The notes: generated from the letters alone by a model not told the origin. Positions 11,701-31,958 are shown, counted from the stretch's first letter. The stretch is DNA of 41,091 nucleotides from Eledone cirrhosa (GCA_964016885.1 CAXHJY010000441.1:1-41091); one strand, 5' to 3'. Numbers and translations: made by a program.

Positions 11701-11983
11701 CATATCTATCTATATCTATCTATCTATCTATCTATATCTATCTATATCTATCTATCTATCTATCTATCTTTCTGTCTAACGTGCGGAATATCGTCGGTAA
11801 GTTTTTTGTTAATTTCTATGCAAAAAACCGATCTAATTGTTTGAAAAAAATACAACACTTTGTAGATTAACCCCCAAGCTGAATTGTCAGCCGGGTGGTA
11901 ATCCCATTTTTCGCCCCTGTAGGGGCGAAAATTTTATTTAAAAGTTTGTCTTAAAATATCAAATTTTACAAAGTAAAAAAAAC

Positions 11984-13852
11984 TTGAGCAACACTAGAAC
12001 GCTGGAGAACGTTAATAGTGAAAAGAGAGAGAAAGAGGCAGATATTAACGTTATATCTGCTTCTGCTGCTATGGACGTTGCCATAGATACTGTCACAAAA
12101 GAAAAAAATATATCAACATTTGAAAATGTTACAATTTCTACCGCCGAAGCGGAGAAAAATGACAATAACACACGGGAAAACACGGCAAAAAAACCCATTG
12201 ACATACATACACATGAAAAAGACATCAACAACTCTACAGATACATCTACACATAAAATTTCCAACAACGATAACATCATTATTAACAACAACATCACACA
12301 AAAAAAGAAAATGTCTTTTGCTGACACAGTCAACAAGAAACAAGATTTTATAAATCTTGATATCTCCAACGCAAGAGATATGCTCCAGCAAGGGAGAAAA
12401 TTTGTAACTTTCGAAGAAAGAGGTGGGTTTAGAATTAACTCACCCCTTGAAATAAAGGAAGACACAAACCGCCGATCAGTCACTTTTAGGACTGTGTCAA
12501 ATTCGTCAAGAAAACCGACATTTGTTAATCAGTCAGATATAGAAGATTCTTTCAAGGAGATTCTAGGAAATGTCGATTTTCTCCAGCGAGGAAAACAGTA
12601 CGGAAGTGTTTCCGTACTGTTTAAAAGCGAGACACTGGCCCAAAAAAACTCTGTGACACCAATAGTGTCAAAAGCATACACCTTTTTCCCTACATACATG
12701 GGGAAAAGGACACAAAAAATAAAAATAAAAAACATACCTCCAAGCATTAACATCTGGTGGATCTTGGCTGGCTTCGTAGAGCCAGAAACAGACATAATAC
12801 TTTCGATACGAAAATCCATTCGACAAAGGTGGGCGGGCACCGATTTGGAGATTCTGTTGCAAATGAAACCGGAGAGAATCTCCAAAATACCCGAAAGAGT
12901 CGTTATTGATAATAACAACAAAATAAACATTTCGGTAGAAGGAAGAAAATTTCACTGCTTTCGCTGTGGTAGCACATCTCACCTAAAAGCCTCTTGTCCA
13001 CAAACACACAACAGCAACATCATAAAAAAAACGCTATTACCAACACCAACACCAAAACAACCACCACCACAAGTACAATGACAGACGAAACGAACAACCA
13101 CACCAAAACAAACAGACACTCAACCAACAACAACAGAAAAAACAGAGACAACACCCCTGAAGAACACATCCCCACTCCATCCCACTCCATCAAACACTAC
13201 CACAAACACACATACCGAAACACCACCACCACCACACAACATACCCTTACCCCACACACCTGACGATGATTATTCATCGACGGATGAAGCTGCTTCTCCT
13301 TCTTTAAGTGAAGAAGAGGGAGAACCGCGGAAATCAAAAAAACAAAAAAAGAGACACCACAAAACCCCCAAAACTCCAATCACCAACACCAACACACAAC
13401 CACAGACACAAACAACACAAACAACACCACAGTCAAACACCCCCCTATCAGCAAAACCAGCACCAACACCACCCCAAACACAAGCACCCACCATAAAAAG
13501 AAAACTCCCAGATGAACAACAAACTAAAACAATACAACAAAAACACAAACAACAATACGCATACATCAACACAAACAACAAGAGTTTGATGGAGGTCATC
13601 TCCCAAAACCCCAAGGTGGAGACGGAGGGCAAAACTTTCGTCAAGGCAGAATCGTCTCCACACCTTAAACTTATAAGGGTTCCTATGGAAACCTATAAAG
13701 ACCTGAAAATTAAATTTTCACAGGACGTGGGCAACCCCTGCCACAAACCCATCAACCGCGTCCTGTTGAAAGGTTTCCCCACCCCACCCAACACCCCATC
13801 CAGCACCCAAATGGAGATTGAACAACCCGATCTCCAGGAAACGAAAAGGTAA
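11984..13852 (+). pseudogene. Tx1 ORF1 (gag-like, CX2CX4HX4C knuckle, P/T/Q-rich tail) interrupted by one in-frame TGA
   Basis: CFRCGSTSHLKASC motif; the frame stays open after TGA 13079-13081 (QTKRTTTPKQ...) through to the in-frame ORF 13586-13852; the true start is uncertain (TTG 11984 or ATG ~12071). Confidence 0.8.
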
Positions 13853-13893
13853 GTGCACCTTTCGTCCTTTTTCTCCAACTTTTCTTCACCAAC

Positions 13894-16800
13894 ATGGCTG
13901 GTTTACGAGTTGGAACCGTGAATGTGCGTGGCCTAGGGATGCCCTGGAAACAGGGCCAACTTTTAAACGACCTTAGGTCACACAGTATGGATGTGATAGC
14001 CATTACCGAGTCCAGAATCCACAACAGGCAGCAACTAACCCCTATCTTCGACGACTTTGATATCTACGCATCTCTCTGTCAGCCAGGAGGTGGAGGTGGA
14101 GTGGCTGTTATGTTTCGGAAGAACCTGGACGTCGGAGTACAGCAAGTACACTTGGACCCGGAGGGTAGACTGGTAGTCCTAGACGTGAACAGTATCGGAG
14201 GTGGAGCCTTCAGACTGGTGGCCGTTTATGCCCCGACCGGGCAATCGCAATCACGGCCAGACTTCTTTAAGCGTCTAGAGTCTTTTCTGGGAACGTCTCG
14301 CTCCTTACTTTTAGTGGGGGACTGGAATGGTATCCTAGATGCACGATGGGACTATGTGGGAGCATGTCCCAGTAGAGCGGGGTGCAACAGCCTCAAAACT
14401 TTAATCGGCCAATTCCAACTGGCCGATAGGTATCGACTGGATTTCCCGACTGCACCACAGTGGACGTGGGTAAACCGCAGTGGGACATCTAGATCGTATT
14501 TAGATAGGTTCTTCATTAGAGAAAGGGACAAGGATATGTTAAGCTGTCCACGAATGCACATGGTTGCCTATTCAGATCACAAGTTAGTCGTCTGCTTAGT
14601 CAACCGTGATAGAATACATAGACAGGGTCCCGGATACTGGAAGCTGAACGTGTCGTTGCCGGCACGTAAAGCTTACAGTGAACGGATAAGTAAACTAGTC
14701 AAGCAACAGTTAACGGGAGCCATCGTCAACAATAGATGGTGGTACTCTCTCAAGAAAGCAATTAGAATAGAATCGATAGGGTATAGCAGAGAGTTAGCCT
14801 TAGACAAAAACAGAATAGAAAGAGAACTAGTAGCCAAGGTAGAGGAGGCACTTAGAAGTGGCAACGCGGCTAGAGTGTTAGCGTCGAGAACGGCACTGGA
14901 CCAGTTCTTCGATGCGAAACACGAAGGCTGCGTGGTCAGAAGCAAAACACGTGCTCTAGGAAACAAAGGAGCGAAAGCTGTCAGCTGGGCCCGAGTGGCG
15001 GAGGCAAAAAGTGGCAACAAGTCCACGATTCGGTCTTTGAAAGACCAAAACGGACGCGTGCTACTTGACCCCAAGCAAATGTGCGCGGCCTTTCAGCGGC
15101 ACTTTGCGCGACTGTTTGAGCAGAACGACAGTGAGCCGAACGGGGCAATGGACTTTAGTTCATACCTCGACGGCCTGCCGCGTCTCTCGAACACGGACGC
15201 CGAGTTCTGCGAAAGACCGATCACGGACACTGAGATACGGGACGCTCTGGGCCGCTGCGGGAAACGCAAGTCACCCGGTCTAGATGGTCTACCCTACGAA
15301 TTTTACATAGGCATGCCGGACTTGTTCTCTGGCGTCCTCGAAGCCGTCTACTGCAATTGGCAGCAGAACGGGAGAATTCCCAGTTCTGCAGGCAAGGGCG
15401 TAGTAACGCTGATCAGGAAAGACGAGAACAAGGGGGACGAAATTAACAACTTCAGGCCCATAACTCTGCTCAACACAGAGTTAAAGATTTTGGCCAAGGT
15501 GCTAGCGACGAGGTTGGCGCTTGTCGTCGAGAACCTGGTAGGGAAAGCGCAAACGTGTGCAATTCCGACCAGGTCCATACACGACAACCTCCACCTCATG
15601 CGATACATCATAGAGAGGGTGGGTAGTAAACCCGGCTTCGGTGGGGCTCTGATCAACTTGGATCAGTCTAAGGCATTCGATAGGGTCGACCATCGATACT
15701 TGGAAGCGGTTCTCAAGGCGGCCGGTTTCGGTCCCGTGTTCAGAGGATGGATCGAGGCGATGCACACCAGCATCTGCTCGAGGGTCAAGGTAAACGGCTA
15801 CCTATCGGAGCCGTTCGCAATCACGCGTTCCATTCGACAGGGATGCCCTCTCTCCTCCATTCTGTATGTATTGACTCTAGAGCCACTACTGCGGAAATTG
15901 GAGCTGTTGCAGGGCATCCCACTAGAACCGGGACTGCGCAAAGCGGCGTCGGCTTATGCCGACGACGTGACAGTAATGGTGTCGAGCACCTCGGAAATCG
16001 GGGTGATCGGCAACATACTGAAAGAATACGAAACGCTGACGGGAGCAAAACTAAACCCAGACAAGTCTGTCGGTTTGCAACTCGGTACGTGGAGAGGCAA
16101 ACCGATGACATCCGACAGCGTCGTTGGACGCTGGACGGACGGACCGGTGAAATTGCTCGGGGTCTGGTTCGGTCCAGACCTCCAGGTGGAGAAAAACTGG
16201 AACGAGGTCACGGCCAAGGTGTTTGCACTCACTCAGAAGTGGGCAGAGTGCAAACTGTCCTTGAAAGGTCGAGCGGAGGTGGCGAACACTTTCATAGCGT
16301 CCGTCATCTACTACCGCTTGACTGTCGTGCCTTGTCCCCGTGAACACCTCGCCAAGATGGAACGCATGCTCTTCCAGTTTCTGTGGAAGAAGCAGGCTCC
16401 GCTGGTGAGGAGATCCGTCTGCTGTCAGCACCCTTCCAACGGAGGGCTGGGAATGCCGTGGCTGATGATGCGTAAACATGCGCTGAGGCTGCGGCATCTC
16501 CAGGTATTCCTCACCGTTTGTGAGACAGGCTTTCCCACAGCTCGTCTCGCTAACGGAGCTGCAGTCCTGGGTGAAGAAAAGACCGAAAACGATGGGCGCC
16601 TGGCACATTGAATGCGCTCAGGCGCTCACAGTCCTCTGGCAAGCGGGCGCAGCAATCAGTGGAGACTCCACTTCGACATTCTATAGAGGGATTGTACGTT
16701 ACAAGGGCGACGACGTGCTCGGAGAGACTCTGGGCGTCGAAGACGATGAGCTCACCAGTATGTTTGGTAGGACTTTCCGCCCGGGACCTATGGACAACTT

Positions 16801-17317
16801 CCAGAGGTCCCTGGTCTGGCAGTGCTACCGAGGAGCTCTACCGGTTCGTGACAAGATCTACAGGCACGGACGCCCTGGCAGGGATCCTTCCAAGAGGACG
16901 TGTCCAAGATGTGCGCAGGACATTGAAACAGTTCTGCACGCAATTGTACACTGCCCGGGCGTAAGCGACCTGTGGAACTATGCAGAACAACTGCTGTCGC
17001 GTATGGGACAAATACAGTTGACTGCCGAGTCCATAGTAAGGATCAAACCGCCAGACTCTTTCAAAAACGAAAGAGAGGCGGTTTTCCTCTGTACGGTGGC
17101 TATGGTGAAAGAAGTTATATGGTGGACGAGGTTGAGAGGACTGAGGACAGATGCCTTTCTCTCCGGACAACAATTGATTCCATTCTTTAAGTATCACTTT
17201 AGAAGGAGAATCAGGGTGGAGAGAGAGGCACTGCACCCCAGTAAATTTACTGAAAGGTGGGTGAATGAAGCGAAAATGGCCAGAGTGATTGGGCCTTCTC
17301 TGTTTATAAGCCTGTAG
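13894..17317 (+). pseudogene. Tx1 ORF2: apurinic-like endonuclease, reverse transcriptase, C-terminal zinc finger; one frameshift near 16510
   Basis: TVNVRG, GDWN, SDH (APE); GLDG, FRPITLLN, LDQSKAFD, RQGCPLS, AYADD (RT); continues in +1 frame SPFVRQAFPQL...CPRC...HAIVHC. Confidence 0.93.
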
Positions 17318-18418: not shown

Positions 18419-18763
18419 TGGAGGCACATGGCTTAGTGGTTAGAGCATTGGCCTTGCAATCGAAAGGTTGTGAGTTCAATTCTCAGACCGGGTGGTGTGT
18501 TGTTTCCTTGAGCAAGACTCTTTATTTCAAATTGCTCCAGTTTACTCAGCTGTAGAAATGAGATGATAGGGACTGAGGTCCTTATCATTCCACTGCAAAG
18601 TGGTCGTGTAGGTGCCACGGCAAAAAAGCACCCAGCACTCACTGTAAATGAGGTTGGTGTTAGGAAGGGCATCCAGCTGTAGAAATCAAGCCAGAATCAG
18701 TTCCCGTCCCACCCTTGCAAGCAGGGAAAAGCGGACGTAAAATGAAATGATGATGAATGATGA
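18419..18763 (+). mobile_element. tRNA-derived SINE with RTE-like 3' tail
   Basis: A box tggcttagtgg (18429-18439), B box gttcaattc (18474-18482), tail shares cactgtaaatg.ggttggtgttaggaagggcatccagctgtagaaa and gcaagc...cggacg.aaa(tga)n with the RTE 3' UTR. Confidence 0.85.
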
Positions 18764-19093
18764 TATATATATCTATATATATATCTATATATATATATAT
18801 ATCTATATATATATCTATATATATATCTATATATATATCTATATATATATCTATATATATATATATATATATATATCTATATATATATATATATATATAT
18901 ATCTATATATATCTCTATATATATATATCTATATATCTCTATATATATCTCTATATCTCTATATATATATCTCTATATATATATCTCTATATATATATCT
19001 CTATATATATATCTCTCTATATATATATCTCTATATATATATCTATATATCTATATATATATATATATCTATATATCTATATATATCTATATA

Positions 19094-19146
<53 letters not shown>

Positions 19147-19291
19147 ATCTATCTATATATATATATATATTTATATATATCTATATATCTATATATTTAA
19201 CGAAGGAAATGTGGTAAGGAACCAGGTGGACCATAACGCACCAAAGTACTCAATACTTGAGGTAGTAGAGTGGATAATAGGAACCAGTAAG

Positions 19292-19385
19292 ACCCCGACA
19301 GCTGAGCTCAAGCCGTTTCGACGGCTAATTCTGGACTAAATGAAAATTTATCCTGGTATTTAAATAGCCGATCTTCTCAAGGGGT
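19292..19385 (-). ncRNA. Type I hammerhead ribozyme (U3-A8 variant), inverted copy
   Basis: Reverse complement of 21241-21334. Confidence 0.75.
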
Positions 19386-21240
19386 AATTCCATATATGGT
19401 CAAAGTGATTGTCAAAAATCAGTAGTAATTCTGTGGTTGCAAATTAGTAGCGGAGATGGTGGCTAAACCTGCCAGTAGGAGAAAGAGGGGAGGGGGTGGA
19501 GTAGCCCCAATCAAGCGTTTGTAGTGCCAGCTACAGCTGGGCATGAGGTCAAAGAAGATACAGGGGAGGGGGAGGGGGGGAAGTCGGAACGGTAGGTAGA
19601 ACAATGGGGGGTAGAAATATATAGGAAAGAAAAAATACTGAGAGTGAAGAAAAGCAAATAAGTGTAAAGAAAAACAAATGAGTGTAAAGAAAGTAAAGTA
19701 AATTAAATTCTACGACCTAGGTCTCTAGCTATTGTTAGTCTAGAATAAATAAATAAATAAAGAAAGAAAGAAAGAAGTAAAGAAAGAAATAAAGAAATAA
19801 CGAAATAAGTAAAAGAACTAGGTGGGACGGAATAGGCGAGGACCCTTTTAAGAGGTATAAGTACGTAAATGATACGGTGACGGGTCAACAAAAGGGGCCA
19901 AAATACTAAAGAGACTACCACGAAATAAACAATAAAGGTTTCCATCCCGGGCACAATTCCAGCAACCACCCAGTGCAGCAAAGTGAACTGTTTTCGACGG
20001 ACCAACTCCTAAACAAGAAAGATGAACTGGTTACTGCATGTAAACATAGATTGCGTAGGACTTACCTCGCCCTCAAACCCCATAATGACCCGGGGGGGTA
20101 GACTAGGGCTATAACACCCCACTTGCCGATTTTGTAATGGGTAACCCCTGCTTGCCAAGGGAGACGTAAGATCTTCTTTGTATTCTTTTATCGCTTCCTT
20201 TATTTCCTTCCTTCCCCCCTCTCTCCTTAGTCCTTCTACCCCAGCTCTTCTCCTTTGTCGGCGTCTTTTCTCGCCCACCCGAGGCTGCCCTTTGGCCCAT
20301 TGTAGCCTTAGTACCCCTACCCCCTCCCCTAGTCTAGGATAGATTTGGCGGACTCCGCCCTTTATAGCAGTTGGTTTAGACCCCGGATACTTGTCCCCTT
20401 TTTCCGACCGCTCCCACTATTCTCTGTGCCCTCTATATTTCTTAGTGGCACTTATGCCTTATTTTTTCGTTTCAGTATTTCTTTCTTCGCTTTTCTTTTG
20501 GGCGGGGTGGATTCTGAATTTATTCTTCCGCATTCTACCTTTACTTCGTACGAACTTTCATGTAGCTTGTTTTAGATCTTTTAGAGTTAGCATTAGTATA
20601 TATTTTTCTCGGAACTCAGAATTATTATCTCGTATTAGTTCACTTTGCTGCACTGGGTGGTTGCTGGAATTGTGCCCGGGATGGAAACCTTTATTGTTTA
20701 TTTCGTGGTAGTCTCTTTAGTATTTTGGCCCCTTTTGTTGACCCGTCACCGTATCATTTACGTACTTATACCTCTTAAAAGGGTCCTCGCCTATTCCGTC
20801 CCACCTAGTTCTTTTACTTATTTCGTTATTTCTTTATTTCTTTCTTTACTTCTTTCTTTCTTTATTTATTTATTTATTTATTCTAGACTAACAATAGCTA
20901 GAGACCTAGGTCGTAGAATTTAATTTACTTTACTTTCTTTACACTCATTTGTTTTTCTTTACACTTATTTGCTTTTCTTCACTCTCAGTATTTTTTCTTT
21001 CCTATATATTTCTACCCCCATTGTTCTACCTACCGTTCCGACTTCCTCCCCCTCTCCCTCCCCTGTATCTTCTTTGACCTCATGCCCAGCTGTAGCTGGC
21101 ACTACAAACGCTTGATTGGGGCTACTCCACCCCCTCCCCTCTTTCTCCTACTGACAGGTTTAGCCACCATCTCCCCTACTAATTTGCAACCACAGAATTA
21201 CTACTGATTTTTGACAATCACTTTGACCATATATGGAATT

Positions 21241-21334
21241 ACCCCTTGAGAAGATCGGCTATTTAAATACCAGGATAAATTTTCATTTAGTCCAGAATTA
21301 GCCGTCGAAACGGCTTGAGCTCAGCTGTCGGGGT
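21241..21334 (+). ncRNA. Type I hammerhead ribozyme (U3-A8 variant core)
   Basis: Helix I acccc/ggggt; core UUGAGAA; helix II ga(t)cggcta/tagccgtc; GAAA; helix III cggct/agctg with loop tgagctc; GUC cleavage triplet ending 21329. Confidence 0.75.
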
Positions 21335-21368
21335 CTTACTGGTTCCTATATATATATTTATATATATA

Positions 21369-21421
<53 letters not shown>

Positions 21422-21469
21422 TAAGAGAGTAAAACAAAGAATCCTTTAATACATCAAAAGTTTTTATTA

Positions 21470-21507
21470 GCCGACAATGTTTTGTCCTATTAAGGACTCA
21501 TCAGGGC
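21470..21507 (-). ncRNA. Minimal type I hammerhead ribozyme with G12A substitution (likely inactive) in a Penelope-type 3' end (~21420-21690)
   Basis: Reverse complement: gcc CTGATGA gtcct-taat-aggac AAAA c att GTC ggc. Confidence 0.7.
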
Positions 21508-22550
21508 AATCAAATCAACAAGAGGTAATTTCGGCAGATACAAGACAGAAACTCTGAAGAATATGGAGTGTACATACACTAATGTCTTACAAAGATATAC
21601 GATAATAAAAATGAAGATAAAAATAATAAAATTATAATAACTAAGGATGTAGATAACATTAAGAACAATATTACAAATATAGTCCATATTACAAATATAT
21701 ATATATAGATATATATATATATATATCTATATAAAATATTAAAAAAATAATGAATAAAACAATGAAACAGTTCCTTATATTAAACAAAAAAAGTTCATTA
21801 TTTAACGATCGTTTCTAGGACATATATGTGTTAGAATTGGCATGCATATTCAAAAGATCTATGTACAAAATTATACAAAATTATACAAACTATCAAATAG
21901 AATATACATACCAACACATACATATGCCGTCTTCAGAAATAATGAAGTATATTTATTGATAATAACAACAATTCAAAATTACAGGTCTGTTTGGGAACAG
22001 ATTTTAAATAGACCAATGAAATACATAAAAATACATCAAGAAAATACAGTTAGGTGTGTGTATATATGCAAGTAACTTCGTTCACAGATATGCATAAAAG
22101 TGTATGTTCACATGCATACGCATGTCGAAAAAGTGTATGTAAATACAAAAATTCAGGGCTAATGTCTCGGTATGTTTATAATCCACAGACAAAATACACA
22201 TACGTATACATACATATATACACTCATATACACACACATATACATACATTCATACACACACACGCATATACACATAAACATACACATACCCACGAACACA
22301 CACACACACACAGACACACACACATACACACATACGTATATATTATTATTATAACTATATGGATATTATTATAACTATATGGATACACTTACATCTAGAT
22401 GCAGAACTAAAAATAGGTAAGGGAGTAAGTAAATTACAGAGGGTGTCAGACTCAGCATATTTATAAAAATGTATCTATAAATTTAGAAATAAAAAGAAAT
22501 ATATTAAAAGAAATAAACAAGTAAAAGATATACTCATACATATAAATACA

Positions 22551-22590
<40 letters not shown>

Positions 22591-23241
22591 CATATATATA
22601 TATACATACATATACACACACACATATATATACACACATACTCACAACACATATATACATATATGTACACACACATACACACATACATACATATACATAT
22701 ACATACATATACATATATATATATATACACACACATATATATATACACACACATACATATACGTATATATACATACACACACATACCCATGTATATATAC
22801 ACACAACCACACACTCACACACAACTCAGACATACATAAATATAGAGACATACATACACACATATATACATATACATATATACATACATATAAATATATA
22901 TACACACATATATATACACACATATATATATATATATATATAAAAAAATAAATAAATACACAGTCAGACAATTATGCACATATATACACATACATACACA
23001 TATCTCTACAAATACATATACATACACATACATACATACACATATATATACATATATATATATATTTATAAATATATATATACCCCAAAATACCAACATA
23101 AAACCAATTTTCTCTAACTCCTCTAATATAAAGTATAGTAACTCTCAAAAAACTACTCATCATACAACTCTAATAAATGTTAATAATAAAACTCCTAATA
23201 AACAAGATAAAACACCTAAATCAATAAATCTAACTAAAAAT

Positions 23242-24027
23242 GTGCGTGGTGAAGTCATTAACATTAATCCTCCTAGTAAACATCCCGATGCATCCTATAA
23301 AAACAATAAACAACATAGAAACCGTAATAGACGAGTTACTTGGTATAATGCTCCATTTAATTTACAAATTAAGGATAATATTGCTAAAAAATTGTTTAAT
23401 ATCCTAGAGAAAAACTTCCTGCCAAACCACAAATACCATCAAATCTTAAATAGATCAACAGTTAAATTCTCATACTCAACAACCAAAAACATAAAACAAA
23501 ATATAAGTGCCTATAATGCATATAAATGTAAAAAAACCATAAGTATACCACCAATACATCAAACTAACCATAATATCTCCTCAAATACAGAATTAACGAA
23601 AGGTTGTAACTGTAGAAACAAAGCAAACTGCCCATTAAAAGGAAATTGTCTTGTTAACAACATAGTTTATAAATGTAAAGTTAAAACTAAAGATTCTATT
23701 TGCTCATATATAGGAGCTACTTCTAACAATTTTAAGGTAAGGTTTAATACCCACAAACATAGTTTTAAAAATGCTGCACTGGCTAATACAACATCTCTAG
23801 CAGAAAAAATTAATAGTTATAGAAATAATATAGAATATGATATGACCTGGAGTGTGCTCAAAAGAGCCACCCCTTATCAAAATAATAGAAATGAATGTAG
23901 ATTGTGTTCCCAAGAACTATTTGAAATAATGAAATCTAAGGATATCCTATTAAATAAGCGACAGGAATTAATTATATCGTGTAATCATAAACTGAGAAAA
24001 ACATTTAAATATTATAAACCTAATTAA
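23242..24027 (+). pseudogene. Penelope-like element C-terminal part: linker + GIY-YIG endonuclease (RT deleted)
   Basis: WYNAPF, CNCR..NCPLKGNCL, IVYKCKV...SYIG, RFNTHK, CRLCSQE motifs; homologous to the C-terminal half of 30252-31958. Confidence 0.88.
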
Positions 24028-29946: not shown

Positions 29947-30251
29947 CAGGAGAACATGATATGAAGGCTAAAAAACACTTGTGGATAGTGCAGTTTTAAA
30001 TCAACATATGAAAAGTGGTTTTAGATTGATGTGTGATATTGGGAAAAATATTTTATTTAGAGAGGGGGGTGGGTGGAAAGGATGAAAAAGGGGAGGAGAT
30101 GAGAGGGAGAGATGGGTGATAGAGAGAAAGAGATAGTTTTTATAACTGAGAGAAGATATATTGTTTTACATAGAGTTGAAAACCGTTGGAAGATAATGTA
30201 TAAATTAAAAGAATTTGAAAATTAACAAAGGTTAGTTCTAATTGCTCTTCT

Positions 30252-31958
30252 TTGAACCTAAATTTATGGTTTGGTACTTCTGAAGTGATTGGCTGGTTCA
30301 ACAAATTGGATAATAAAAACAAACTAAAATTTATTCAATTTGATATTGCCAGCTACTATTCCTCCATTTCGCCTTCACTTCTCAATAATGCTCTATCTTT
30401 CGCACTTAAATATTCTGACATCACCACAGATGAACTTCACATTATCCTCACCGCACGTAAAACCATCCTAGAGTTCAACAACGAATATTGGACCAGAGCC
30501 GATACCTCTAACAACTTCGACATCACAATGGGAGCATCCGATTCATCCCAATTGACTGATTTAATTGGTATCTTCATTTTGAACTCTTTGAGTCGGAAAA
30601 TTCCTCAACTTCGCGGTGGAATTTATCGTGACGATGGACTCTTTACTATCCTAAATTGCAATATAGTTAAACTTAATATTATTAAGAACAATATACGTAA
30701 TCTCTTTAACCAACATAACCTAAAAATTGAATTTGATAATAGTATCAAACTAGCTAATTTCTTGGATGTATCTCTTAATCTTGACACTGGCCTATATTAC
30801 CCTTACCATAAAAACAATGAGAATCTTAATTATGTTAACTTTAAATCTAACCATCCTACCAATATCAAGAATGCTATAGTTAATAATATTGGAAATAGAA
30901 TATTTAACATATCTTCTAATAAAAACATCTTTGATGCTAACGCCAATTACTATAATAACGCACTTTCTAAAGCCGGCTATCCAGATAAAATCAAATATAA
31001 TAAAGAAACAAATTCTAGGAAAACTTACAGTAGAATAATTAATCATGACCATTCCAATAATTTTAATAAAAGACCTAGATACAAAAACATAATCTGGTAT
31101 AATGCTCCTTTCTCCATCTCTATTAATAACAATATTCCTAAATTATTTTTTAGTGCCTTAAATAAATGCTTCCCTCCCTCACATATCTATAGTAAAATAT
31201 TTAACAAACACACCATCAAATTTTCGTATTCTACATCCTCCAATATTTCCAACATCATCTCTAAACATAACAACAAAATATTAAATACTAAATCTCTTCC
31301 TTCCAATATTGAATTTCATAATAACAGTAATAGTACTCCCGACGTCATTGTAAACCCTAGGCTAACTTCTGTAAACCCAAATACAACGTCAAACACAACT
31401 TCGCTAAATGTTCATAATCCAACTCTAAATCAAGAAACTATTATTCCTATTATTCCTATCGCAAACAACTTCTCCAATCCAATTCCTTCTATAGATAACA
31501 CTAGATCACTCATTAATAATCTCTCTAATTGCAACTGCCGCATTAAAAATAAATGTCCTCTCAACAACCATTGTCTCGATAAAAACTTAATTTATGAATG
31601 TAAAGTTATAACTAGCACCAATTCCTTCACCTATTTTGGCTCCACTTCCACCTCTTTTAAAGCTCGTCTCTATAATCACCATTCATCTTTCAAATACAAA
31701 CTTAAAAGAACCAACACGGCTCTCTCAGAACTCATATGGTCCTTGAAAGACAAAAACATTAAATATACCATCTTTTGGAAGAAGGTTTCTTCTGCATCCT
31801 CATACTTGAACAGCTCTCTATCTAAAATCTGTAATCTCTGCCTAAATGAAAAATTTACCATTATCTCTAATCTAGATTCTATAATAAATAGACGTACAGA
31901 TTTGTTTTCTATCTGCCTGCATAAATTCCATAGGACTTTTCACAAAGTATACAGTTAA
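30252..31958 (+). CDS. Penelope-like reverse transcriptase (N-terminally truncated) + GIY-YIG endonuclease
   Basis: FDIASYY, DITMGAS, IYRDDGL, NFLDV, AGYP (RT/thumb); WYNAPF; CNCR..KCPL..HCL, LIYECK...YFG, CNLCLNEK; 568 uninterrupted codons, no natural start. Confidence 0.92.
   Translation: MNLNLWFGTSEVIGWFNKLDNKNKLKFIQFDIASYYSSISPSLLNNALSFALKYSDITTDELHIILTARKTILEFNNEYWTRADTSNNFDITMGASDSSQLTDLIGIFILNSLSRKIPQLRGGIYRDDGLFTILNCNIVKLNIIKNNIRNLFNQHNLKIEFDNSIKLANFLDVSLNLDTGLYYPYHKNNENLNYVNFKSNHPTNIKNAIVNNIGNRIFNISSNKNIFDANANYYNNALSKAGYPDKIKYNKETNSRKTYSRIINHDHSNNFNKRPRYKNIIWYNAPFSISINNNIPKLFFSALNKCFPPSHIYSKIFNKHTIKFSYSTSSNISNIISKHNNKILNTKSLPSNIEFHNNSNSTPDVIVNPRLTSVNPNTTSNTTSLNVHNPTLNQETIIPIIPIANNFSNPIPSIDNTRSLINNLSNCNCRIKNKCPLNNHCLDKNLIYECKVITSTNSFTYFGSTSTSFKARLYNHHSSFKYKLKRTNTALSELIWSLKDKNIKYTIFWKKVSSASSYLNSSLSKICNLCLNEKFTIISNLDSIINRRTDLFSICLHKFHRTFHKVYS

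Follow-up and report, generated by a model that had tools for sequence, protein, structure and literature searches.

Organization of the palindromic insertion

The window, i.e. the complete stretch of 41,091 nt from Eledone cirrhosa that was analysed (GCA_964016885.1, CAXHJY010000441.1:1-41091), consists of animal-type DNA with abundant TA microsatellites and belongs to a genome of 3.0 Gb. Around its middle we found an insertion whose parts are listed in Table 1. Alignment of the two window arms (19277-19989 and 20637-21349) gave 99.16% identity over 714 columns, which confirms the inverted arms described in the first-pass annotation. The same annotation had regarded the element as a palindrome that is capped at both ends by a hammerhead ribozyme and lacks a convincing ORF. 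A hammerhead motif is indeed found at both ends, and the sequence quoted for it is exact, but the element is not symmetric: the family tail (19198-19276) is present on the left side only. The absence of an ORF did not hold, as 19988-20101 encodes the end of the reverse transcriptase (RT)/endonuclease ORF of the family. An assembly artefact was excluded, the arms differing at six places, the insertion being asymmetric and its layout being repeated at many loci. In contigs from four runs (kind not given) the family runs into the ORF at 19988, and none of these contigs bridges the junction of the window. Long double-stranded RNA is a possible, putative product of the palindrome.

Table 1. Features of the insertion in the window. 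Positions with a sign are counted from C17 of the hammerhead, which is set to 0.
Feature	Position	Strand	Basis
Complete insertion: two 5'-truncated copies, head to head, of a Penelope-like element (3.54 kb, Hydra-clade motifs)	19198-21349	.	
Left arm: inverted copy, 5'-truncated, with the tail site (+100) as 3' end	19198-19989	-	
Tail of ~80 nt; in full-length copies it begins the 5' leader preceding the ORF (ATG at +191)	19198-19276	-	
Left type I hammerhead; U3 = 19380, predicted cut after C19297 (C17)	19280-19391	-	fold, descriptor
Right arm: copy truncated at the 5' side, with the short site (+20) as 3' end	19988-21349	+	
RT/endonuclease ORF: last 37 codons and stop, CxH motif included	19988-20101	+	
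3' UTR/pLTR of the element, ~1.1 kb	20102-21234	+	
Right type I hammerhead, extended helix I, palindromic loop III	21235-21346	+	fold, descriptor
Core of the right hammerhead, U3 = 21246 to A9 = 21252; GAAA at 21307-21310; predicted cut after C21329	21246-21252	+	
Positions -44 to -33: 5' end of most genomic arms; initiator-like TYAGTY word (A = 21289)	21285-21296	+	
TATA-like word, 29 nt upstream of 21289; weak, mostly lost in older subfamilies	21260-21267	+	
(TA)n target, left flank	18763-19196	.	
(TA)n target, right flank; TAT common to the +20 end	21347-21419	.	

Several other elements were observed in the window. Just beyond the right (TA)n flank, at 21466-21510 (-), lies a separate canonical type I hammerhead with a CUGAUGA core (Rfam RF00163, 25.2 bits; gathering score 34), which is probably the end of another Penelope-like element (PLE) or of a retrozyme. 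Two more truncated PLE-like frames at 30219-31958 (+) and 22894-24027 (+) share CxCx5C, CxxC and CxH, are 41% and 36% identical to the protein of the family described below, and belong to other Hydra-type families. At 11942-17317 (+) we found a LINE-like element that has an open 929-aa frame with endonuclease and RT (Pfam E 4.9e-14 and 2.2e-27), ORF1-like frames upstream and a shifted C-terminal frame downstream.

Family identity, ORF and copy number

We counted the genomic copies by pattern searches. The 3' half of the ribozyme gave 10,111 exact matches as a 29-mer and 81,042 matches as a 31-mer at up to 3 mismatches, and the 5' half of the young subfamily gave 2,128, so the family is multi-copy, as the first-pass annotation had expected. 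A search with the central 651 bp recovered twenty loci, one of them the window itself, with the unit on one strand. In each of the remaining 19 loci the match begins with the first bases of the unit, and none has the junction of the window; those examined run upstream from 19990 into the coding region, to varying lengths and at 99% identity. The proposal of a non-autonomous, non-coding family fails on these longer copies, which enter an intact ORF of the RT plus GIY-YIG type. One locus (L053) is a partial tandem composed of a pLTR with ribozyme and tail, the leader, an open 717-aa frame starting at +191, the 3' UTR and a second ribozyme, and this pLTR-ORF-pLTR arrangement carrying the hammerhead agrees with the suggested Penelope-like pLTR origin. 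In an array on C1 five ribozyme matches are spaced by 3,542-3,543 bp, which is the unit length; the frame is open in the two complete units that were examined. The autonomous RT/GIY-YIG partner that the first-pass annotation had proposed to look for is thus represented in the genome by intact 717-aa copies and tandem arrays. For the C-terminal 189 aa, 150 of 150 scored matches were 100% identical and without stops.

Of 8,000 candidates scored against the 717-aa protein (P0001), 2,232 reached E <= 1e-20; most of these relatives are unnamed and share 39-43% identity with it. Its frame contains the RT motifs QFDI and LYRDD and the endonuclease motif VIY...YIG, and the domains carried by its Atlas neighbours (0.96-0.99) are HTH_animal, GIY-YIG and RVT_1, the latter two in 26-50% and 18-77% of members, respectively. 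Sequence searches of Pfam, NCBIfam and PDB gave no RT or GIY-YIG match for this protein, and Pfam likewise assigned no family to three frames tested in the centre and arms, nor to the two further PLE-like frames described above. By motifs and neighbours, the single ORF with RT followed by GIY-YIG has the order of C-terminal EN+ PLEs. Structural traits of PLEs are present as well: partial tandems forming pLTRs, an inverted 5'-truncated copy, a tail at one end and a hammerhead in the pLTR.

The Hydra clade of PLEs (Craig et al. 2021, PMC8557442) is marked by RWK, a change of DKG to DKT, a CxCx5C linker, the lack of CCHH, and CxxC plus CxH. We found the corresponding motifs in the 717-aa protein: RWR at 37 (RWK or RWR in the relatives), DKT at 117, the linker CxCx5C at 572, CxxC at 670 and CxH after N689, the last two around a conserved E and N, and a single Cys between VIY and YIG, CCHH being absent. 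The single ORF, the position of a hammerhead near the 3' end and the preference for (TA)n are also shared, nearly all mapped +20 and +100 ends being joined to (TA)n. Two features that are descriptive and not diagnostic differ: Hydra-clade elements are generally shorter than 3 kb, whereas the unit here measures 3,542-3,543 bp with a 1.1-kb 3' UTR, and all Hydra hammerheads in the accessible part of File S2 have a CUGA core and a short loop II, whereas the present motif departs from CUGANGA by U3-A8 and has a loop II of ~40 nt and a helix III of 5-6 bp. The tail of ~80 nt also exceeds the 30-40 nt published for PLEs. File S1 lists a Hydra-clade family from Octopus bimaculoides, Hydra-1_Obim, which has a different ribozyme, its sequence having been compared by eye only. 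Traits of a retrozyme or other non-autonomous element, i.e. a non-coding unit amplified as such, in tandem and with a whole ribozyme per unit, were not found for the family. Judged by its sequence, the element is almost certainly an autonomous Penelope-like retrotransposon family, of the Hydra clade by its motifs. The family is young, with copies 97-99% identical and intact ORFs.

At two loci we observed short repeats at junctions. In L123:3171-6742 (G000:C1, ~91,489,170-91,492,740), ~65 head-to-tail copies of a 55-bp piece of the ORF sit at the 5' truncation junction between the tandem array and its inverted copy, and at the junction of L050 a 14-bp piece is present three times. These repeats may reflect reiterative copying by a telomerase-related RT or later slippage.

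Structure and conservation of the hammerhead motif

The minimum free energy structure of 21225-21350 contains the three hammerhead helices. In helix I the four C-G pairs have probabilities of 0.97-0.98, and the values for helices II and III are 0.62-0.76 and 0.63-0.75, respectively. The core at the right end reads U3 U4 G5 A6 G7 A8 A9, the GUC triplet ends at C21329, and the left-end motif is the mirror image. All elements of a type I hammerhead are present, namely three helices, a Watson-Crick 3-8 pair, GAAA, A15.1-U16.1 and H17. A permissive descriptor allowing any Watson-Crick 3-8 pair found only these two sites in the window and none in 2000 dinucleotide shuffles of the 1360-nt unit. Fold and descriptor therefore agree on the U3-A8 type I hammerhead that had been proposed for each outer end. 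The folding energy itself is unremarkable against background (z -0.3 to -0.7). The Rfam Hammerhead_1 profile gave no match to the U3-A8 motif at either end, in line with the prediction that CUGANGA-type and Rfam searches miss it. The A10.2-U11.2 pair, which had been counted as part of the ribozyme, was seen in only 1 of 20 aligned sequences, that of the window's own subfamily.

Across the family the core is kept to different degrees. U3-A8 was found in all 100 matches listed for the young subfamily (2,128 in total). Among the 100 listed of 1,951 matches in older subfamilies, which were sorted by eye, 71 have U3-A8, 22 C3-A8, 4 U3-G8, 1 C3-G8 and 2 A3, so that the 3-8 pair is broken in about 25 and a G-U pair in 4; position 7 takes all four bases. 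In an alignment of 20 sequences (the window and 19 of 30 older-subfamily loci) covariation was modest: 85.6% of the cells are paired, and 4 of 27 pairs show two-sided changes, three of them via two related sequences. U3-A8 thus stands as the family state, but strict covariation of 3 and 8 does not hold within the lineage. The C3-A8 mismatch subfamily (L168, L181, L182, L208, L213, L219, L222) was amplified to at least 1,310 tail arms, which suggests that full catalysis is not needed for spread.

The motif can also be split. An RNA beginning at -40 lacks the core strand, and according to cofolding the 5' half in the downstream pLTR could complete the ribozyme: the re-formed structure has -27.7 kcal/mol, compared to -14.8 and -1.0 for the two parts alone. 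We further noted that the 5' strands of helix II and helix III (21256-21261 and 21311-21315, +) share five bases, so the 3' strand of helix II can pair with either. An RNA from -40 to +140 is predicted to form this alternative hairpin, which might be an off state.

Ends of the inserted copies

For the mapping of arm ends we used 80 C1 loci, which are the places of 100 listed of the 10,111 matches, plus L056. From these, 141 arms were mapped; the 126 arms with at least 95% identity to the reference served for the ends, 15 were dropped, and the count of pairs used all 141. The sample is biased in that each arm must contain -30 to -2. The 3' ends of the 126 young arms fall on two sites, 54 at +20 and 59 at +100, both joined to (TA)n with a shared TAT, and 54 of 58 abutting head-to-head pairs combine one short (+20) with one tail (+100) end. 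At the 5' side, 96 of the 126 arms end between -33 and -44 (modes -39 and -40) and none between -45 and -100, while 14 end beyond -100 (mostly limited by the 400-nt reference), 9 at 0 to -32 and 7 downstream of 0. The boundary at -44 is visible by eye in an older subfamily, too.

The typical copy is a ~200-bp palindrome that contains half a ribozyme; the copy in the window corresponds to this product except for its longer arms. The junction centre differs between copies, and in mini copies the end points of the two arms usually lie only a few bases apart. At three loci (L094, L119, L121) we observed loop-less perfect palindromes with both arms ending at -39. Of the two window arms, the one with the tail is shorter and the longer one lacks it; since neither arm contains the other, one is not a fold-back copy of the other and two copying events are needed. 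Inverted 5'-truncated copies with a one-sided tail are standard in PLEs (PMC8557442, PMC2377424, PMC3846280), and such a copy is noted for Penelope-13_HM in File S1 of PMC8557442. By its sequence, the palindrome is the usual 5'-truncated inverted-copy insertion of a PLE.

The accumulation of 5' ends between -33 and -44 lies within loop II. Its boundary at -40 is on a TYAGTY word, which is kept in nearly all subfamilies, including two sequences whose neighbouring loop differs strongly, and which presumably represents a match to the animal initiator consensus. This pile-up is likely to mark a transcription start, as far as the sequence can tell; PLE start sites lie in the pLTR (PMC2377424, PMC8557442). 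A cap-derived extra G before A(-40) was not in excess, with 56 G against 44 C (100 listed of 115; p = 0.27). We set aside a TATA box for the -40 start, the TATA-like word being unconserved in most older subfamilies. A 3' splice site at -39/-38 was rejected likewise: the modal ends at -39 and -40 include the AG, and the arms join a partner arm or (TA)n instead of an exon further upstream.

Junctions at the predicted cleavage site

Next, we analyzed tail arms preceded by a purine for ends at the predicted cut, sorting the rows by eye and taking -3 and +7 as control positions. At +1 there were 107 matches, and the 100 listed comprise 66 junctions and 34 intact copies with an extra base. The control at -3 gave 7 junctions in 12 matches, and that at +7 gave 21 junctions in 38, where bases shared with (TA)n pool neighbouring positions. 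Counting A only, 48 were found at +1, of which 11 are ambiguous by one base, versus 5 at -3. In 15 of the 66 +1 junctions both arms end at +1 around one extra A. All 10 fetched both-arm loci have the structure (TA)n-[+20..+1]inverted-A-[+1..+100]-(TA)n, and as they carry at least three tail variants they represent independent events; this +1/+1 class consists of ultra-mini insertions of 121 bp. The visible partner arm mostly starts at or downstream of +1, which suggests that one RNA served for both cDNAs.

As a natural control we examined the C3-A8 subfamily, whose link to its tail was seen in 4 of 4 full copies (30 loci) and in 3 of 3, partly the same loci. Here we counted 14 junctions in 51 matches at +1 and 7 in 17 at -3, a weaker step than in the main subfamily (14 vs 7 compared to 66 vs 7; Fisher p = 0.013). 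Per tail arm, however, the +1 rate is 14/1,310 = 1.1% in C3-A8 versus 66/7,697 = 0.9% in the main subfamily. The weaker step thus results from more stops at -3 and not from fewer at +1, in a subfamily that is older and noisier, and because the +1 rate is no lower the control supports cleavage only in part. About 99% of the tail arms (7,697 intact) extend across the cut site, so that most templates must have been uncut or re-ligated. Position +1 also starts a G4 run at the three-way junction, where stalling of the RT is possible. An extra G at the cut was present in 33 of the 100 listed rows as intact copies; a reading as ligation scar was rejected, the extra G occurring several times more often in the older subfamily (in most of its 37 intact rows vs 1,310 arms), as slippage would predict. 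On the level of genomic sequence, the +1 excess is likely to be indirect evidence of ribozyme cleavage in vivo.

Proposed mechanism and alternative explanations

Our preferred reading, to which we assign a good probability, is that the window contains a 5'-truncated head-to-head insertion of an autonomous PLE into (TA)n and that, in vivo, cleavage by the U3-A8 hammerhead likely affects a minority of the RNAs. The element protein would nick both target strands and reverse transcribe two cDNAs from two fixed internal start sites; that two primers give two cDNAs joined end to end is, in our view, very probable. We lean towards a main transcript that would start at ~-40 in loop II, its 5' end consisting of half a ribozyme and both RT starts, with run-off yielding the ~200-bp mini-palindromes that make up most copies. 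Cleavage after C17, either in read-through RNAs that contain the complete motif or through base pairing to the 5' half in the downstream pLTR, would fairly likely provide the +1 RNAs and with them the 121-bp ultra-mini insertions. Long arms as in the window would need a template that was uncut or re-ligated at the 3' ribozyme. A more far-reaching idea, which is tentative and may well be wrong, is that the RNA starts with half a ribozyme that only its own far end completes. Such a split switch could trim ends and close a circle of 3,543 nt, and the tens of thousands of insertions would then amount to a 5' RACE library of start (-40) and cut (+1), both cDNAs stemming from one RNA.

An experimental comparison is provided by the anole PLE PAc, a Poseidon element (Frangieh et al. 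2024, PMC11167929), for which in vitro both strands were nicked and extended and the RT starts at two internal sites that bound the tail. These two starts, the AT-rich target and the extension of both strands are the same as deduced here. The PAc ribozyme overlaps the start codon, whereas in the present family the ATG lies 191 nt downstream and both starts share TAT with the target. It is dispensable for insertion in vitro, and no RNA-seq reads were reported to end at its cut site; cut ends in vivo were not found for PAc, whereas here genomic copies end in excess at the cut. A review describes the role of PLE ribozymes in vivo as conjectural (PMC6765202).

With the element itself unchanged, the hammerhead could be inactive or merely structural in vivo, and the pile-ups at +1 and -40 would be RT stalls or repair trimming at RNA structure. 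The similar absolute +1 rate in the 1,310 tail arms of the mismatch subfamily, the intact passage of ~99% of tail arms through the cut site, the missing cap-G excess and the anole ribozyme mutants that still insert in vitro (PMC11167929) would all be compatible with this. Yet stops fall about ninefold directly upstream of the cut (66 vs 7), and in 15 insertions the two arms share one terminal base and flank a single extra A. The sharp limit at -44 is located in an AU-rich loop, while arms extend through the GC-rich helices downstream of it; in addition, N7 of the core stays free and helices I-III stay paired from subfamily to subfamily. We thus rate an inactive hammerhead as improbable. Self-priming or fold-back of a single cDNA, or an antisense template (PMC3846280), has also been considered as a source of inverted arms, and it would account for the near identity of the arms of one insertion and for mini-copy arms that mostly stop within a few bases of each other. 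Against it, neither arm of the window can template the other, the tail arm being shorter and the long arm tail-less, and the loop-less palindromes at -39 together with the +1/A/+1 junctions exclude simple hairpin priming. This origin is decidedly unlikely, and the two-event layout of the window fits the in vitro behaviour of PAc better than self-priming.

That most copies are non-coding and palindromic could also suggest a dedicated non-autonomous, retrozyme-like palindrome, 2.15 kb long and mobile as a whole with two terminal ribozymes. The window junction, however, is absent from the 19 other loci sharing the central 651 bp, and those examined continue into the ORF; junction points vary by copy and most mini copies have no ribozyme 5' half (2,128 vs 10,111), which makes such a unit extremely improbable. 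The known non-LTR retrozymes (bioRxiv 10.64898/2026.07.22.740005; see also PMC7229834) are likewise non-coding, PLE-derived repeats with type I hammerheads, but they are arranged head-to-tail in tandem with a whole ribozyme each, whereas the mini copies here are head-to-head, contain half a ribozyme and are apparent dead-end products.

Relation to published hammerheads and significance

The U3-A8 core is not new, having already been published for PLEs. Natural hammerheads with U3-A8 have been reported, also as active in vitro (Perreault et al. 2011, PMC3088659), and ~1,300 Schistosoma U3-A8 motifs were found via the PLE Cercyon (Cervera and de la Pena 2014, PMC4209133). The Cercyon minimal hammerheads show the same core exchange, are of type I and have a long helix II, G10.1-C11.1 and a palindromic loop III, and they are missed by CUGANGA descriptors just as the present motif. 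They differ in being minimal, so that dimers are thought to be needed, whereas the motif described here has a predicted stable helix III, folds as a monomer and belongs to a different PLE family. In a literature search covering mainly openly available papers, we found neither mini head-to-head copies bounded by a start site inside a ribozyme nor genomic ends at the cut of a PLE ribozyme.

While the palindrome and the U3-A8 core are already explained by published PLE biology, the family-wide junction pattern with its fixed 3' ends and its pile-ups at -40 and +1 is new. What PLE hammerheads do in the living animal, and how the inverted copy and the one-sided tail come about, are named as open questions in PMC4209133, PMC8557442 and PMC11167929. 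The family is young and large, so its junctions can be counted like an experiment, in which the C3-A8 subfamily takes the part of a natural mutant. If the +1 excess reflects cleavage, it would be in vivo evidence of a kind absent from the literature searched. The junction pattern makes both the role of the PLE hammerhead and the origin of inverted insertions testable.
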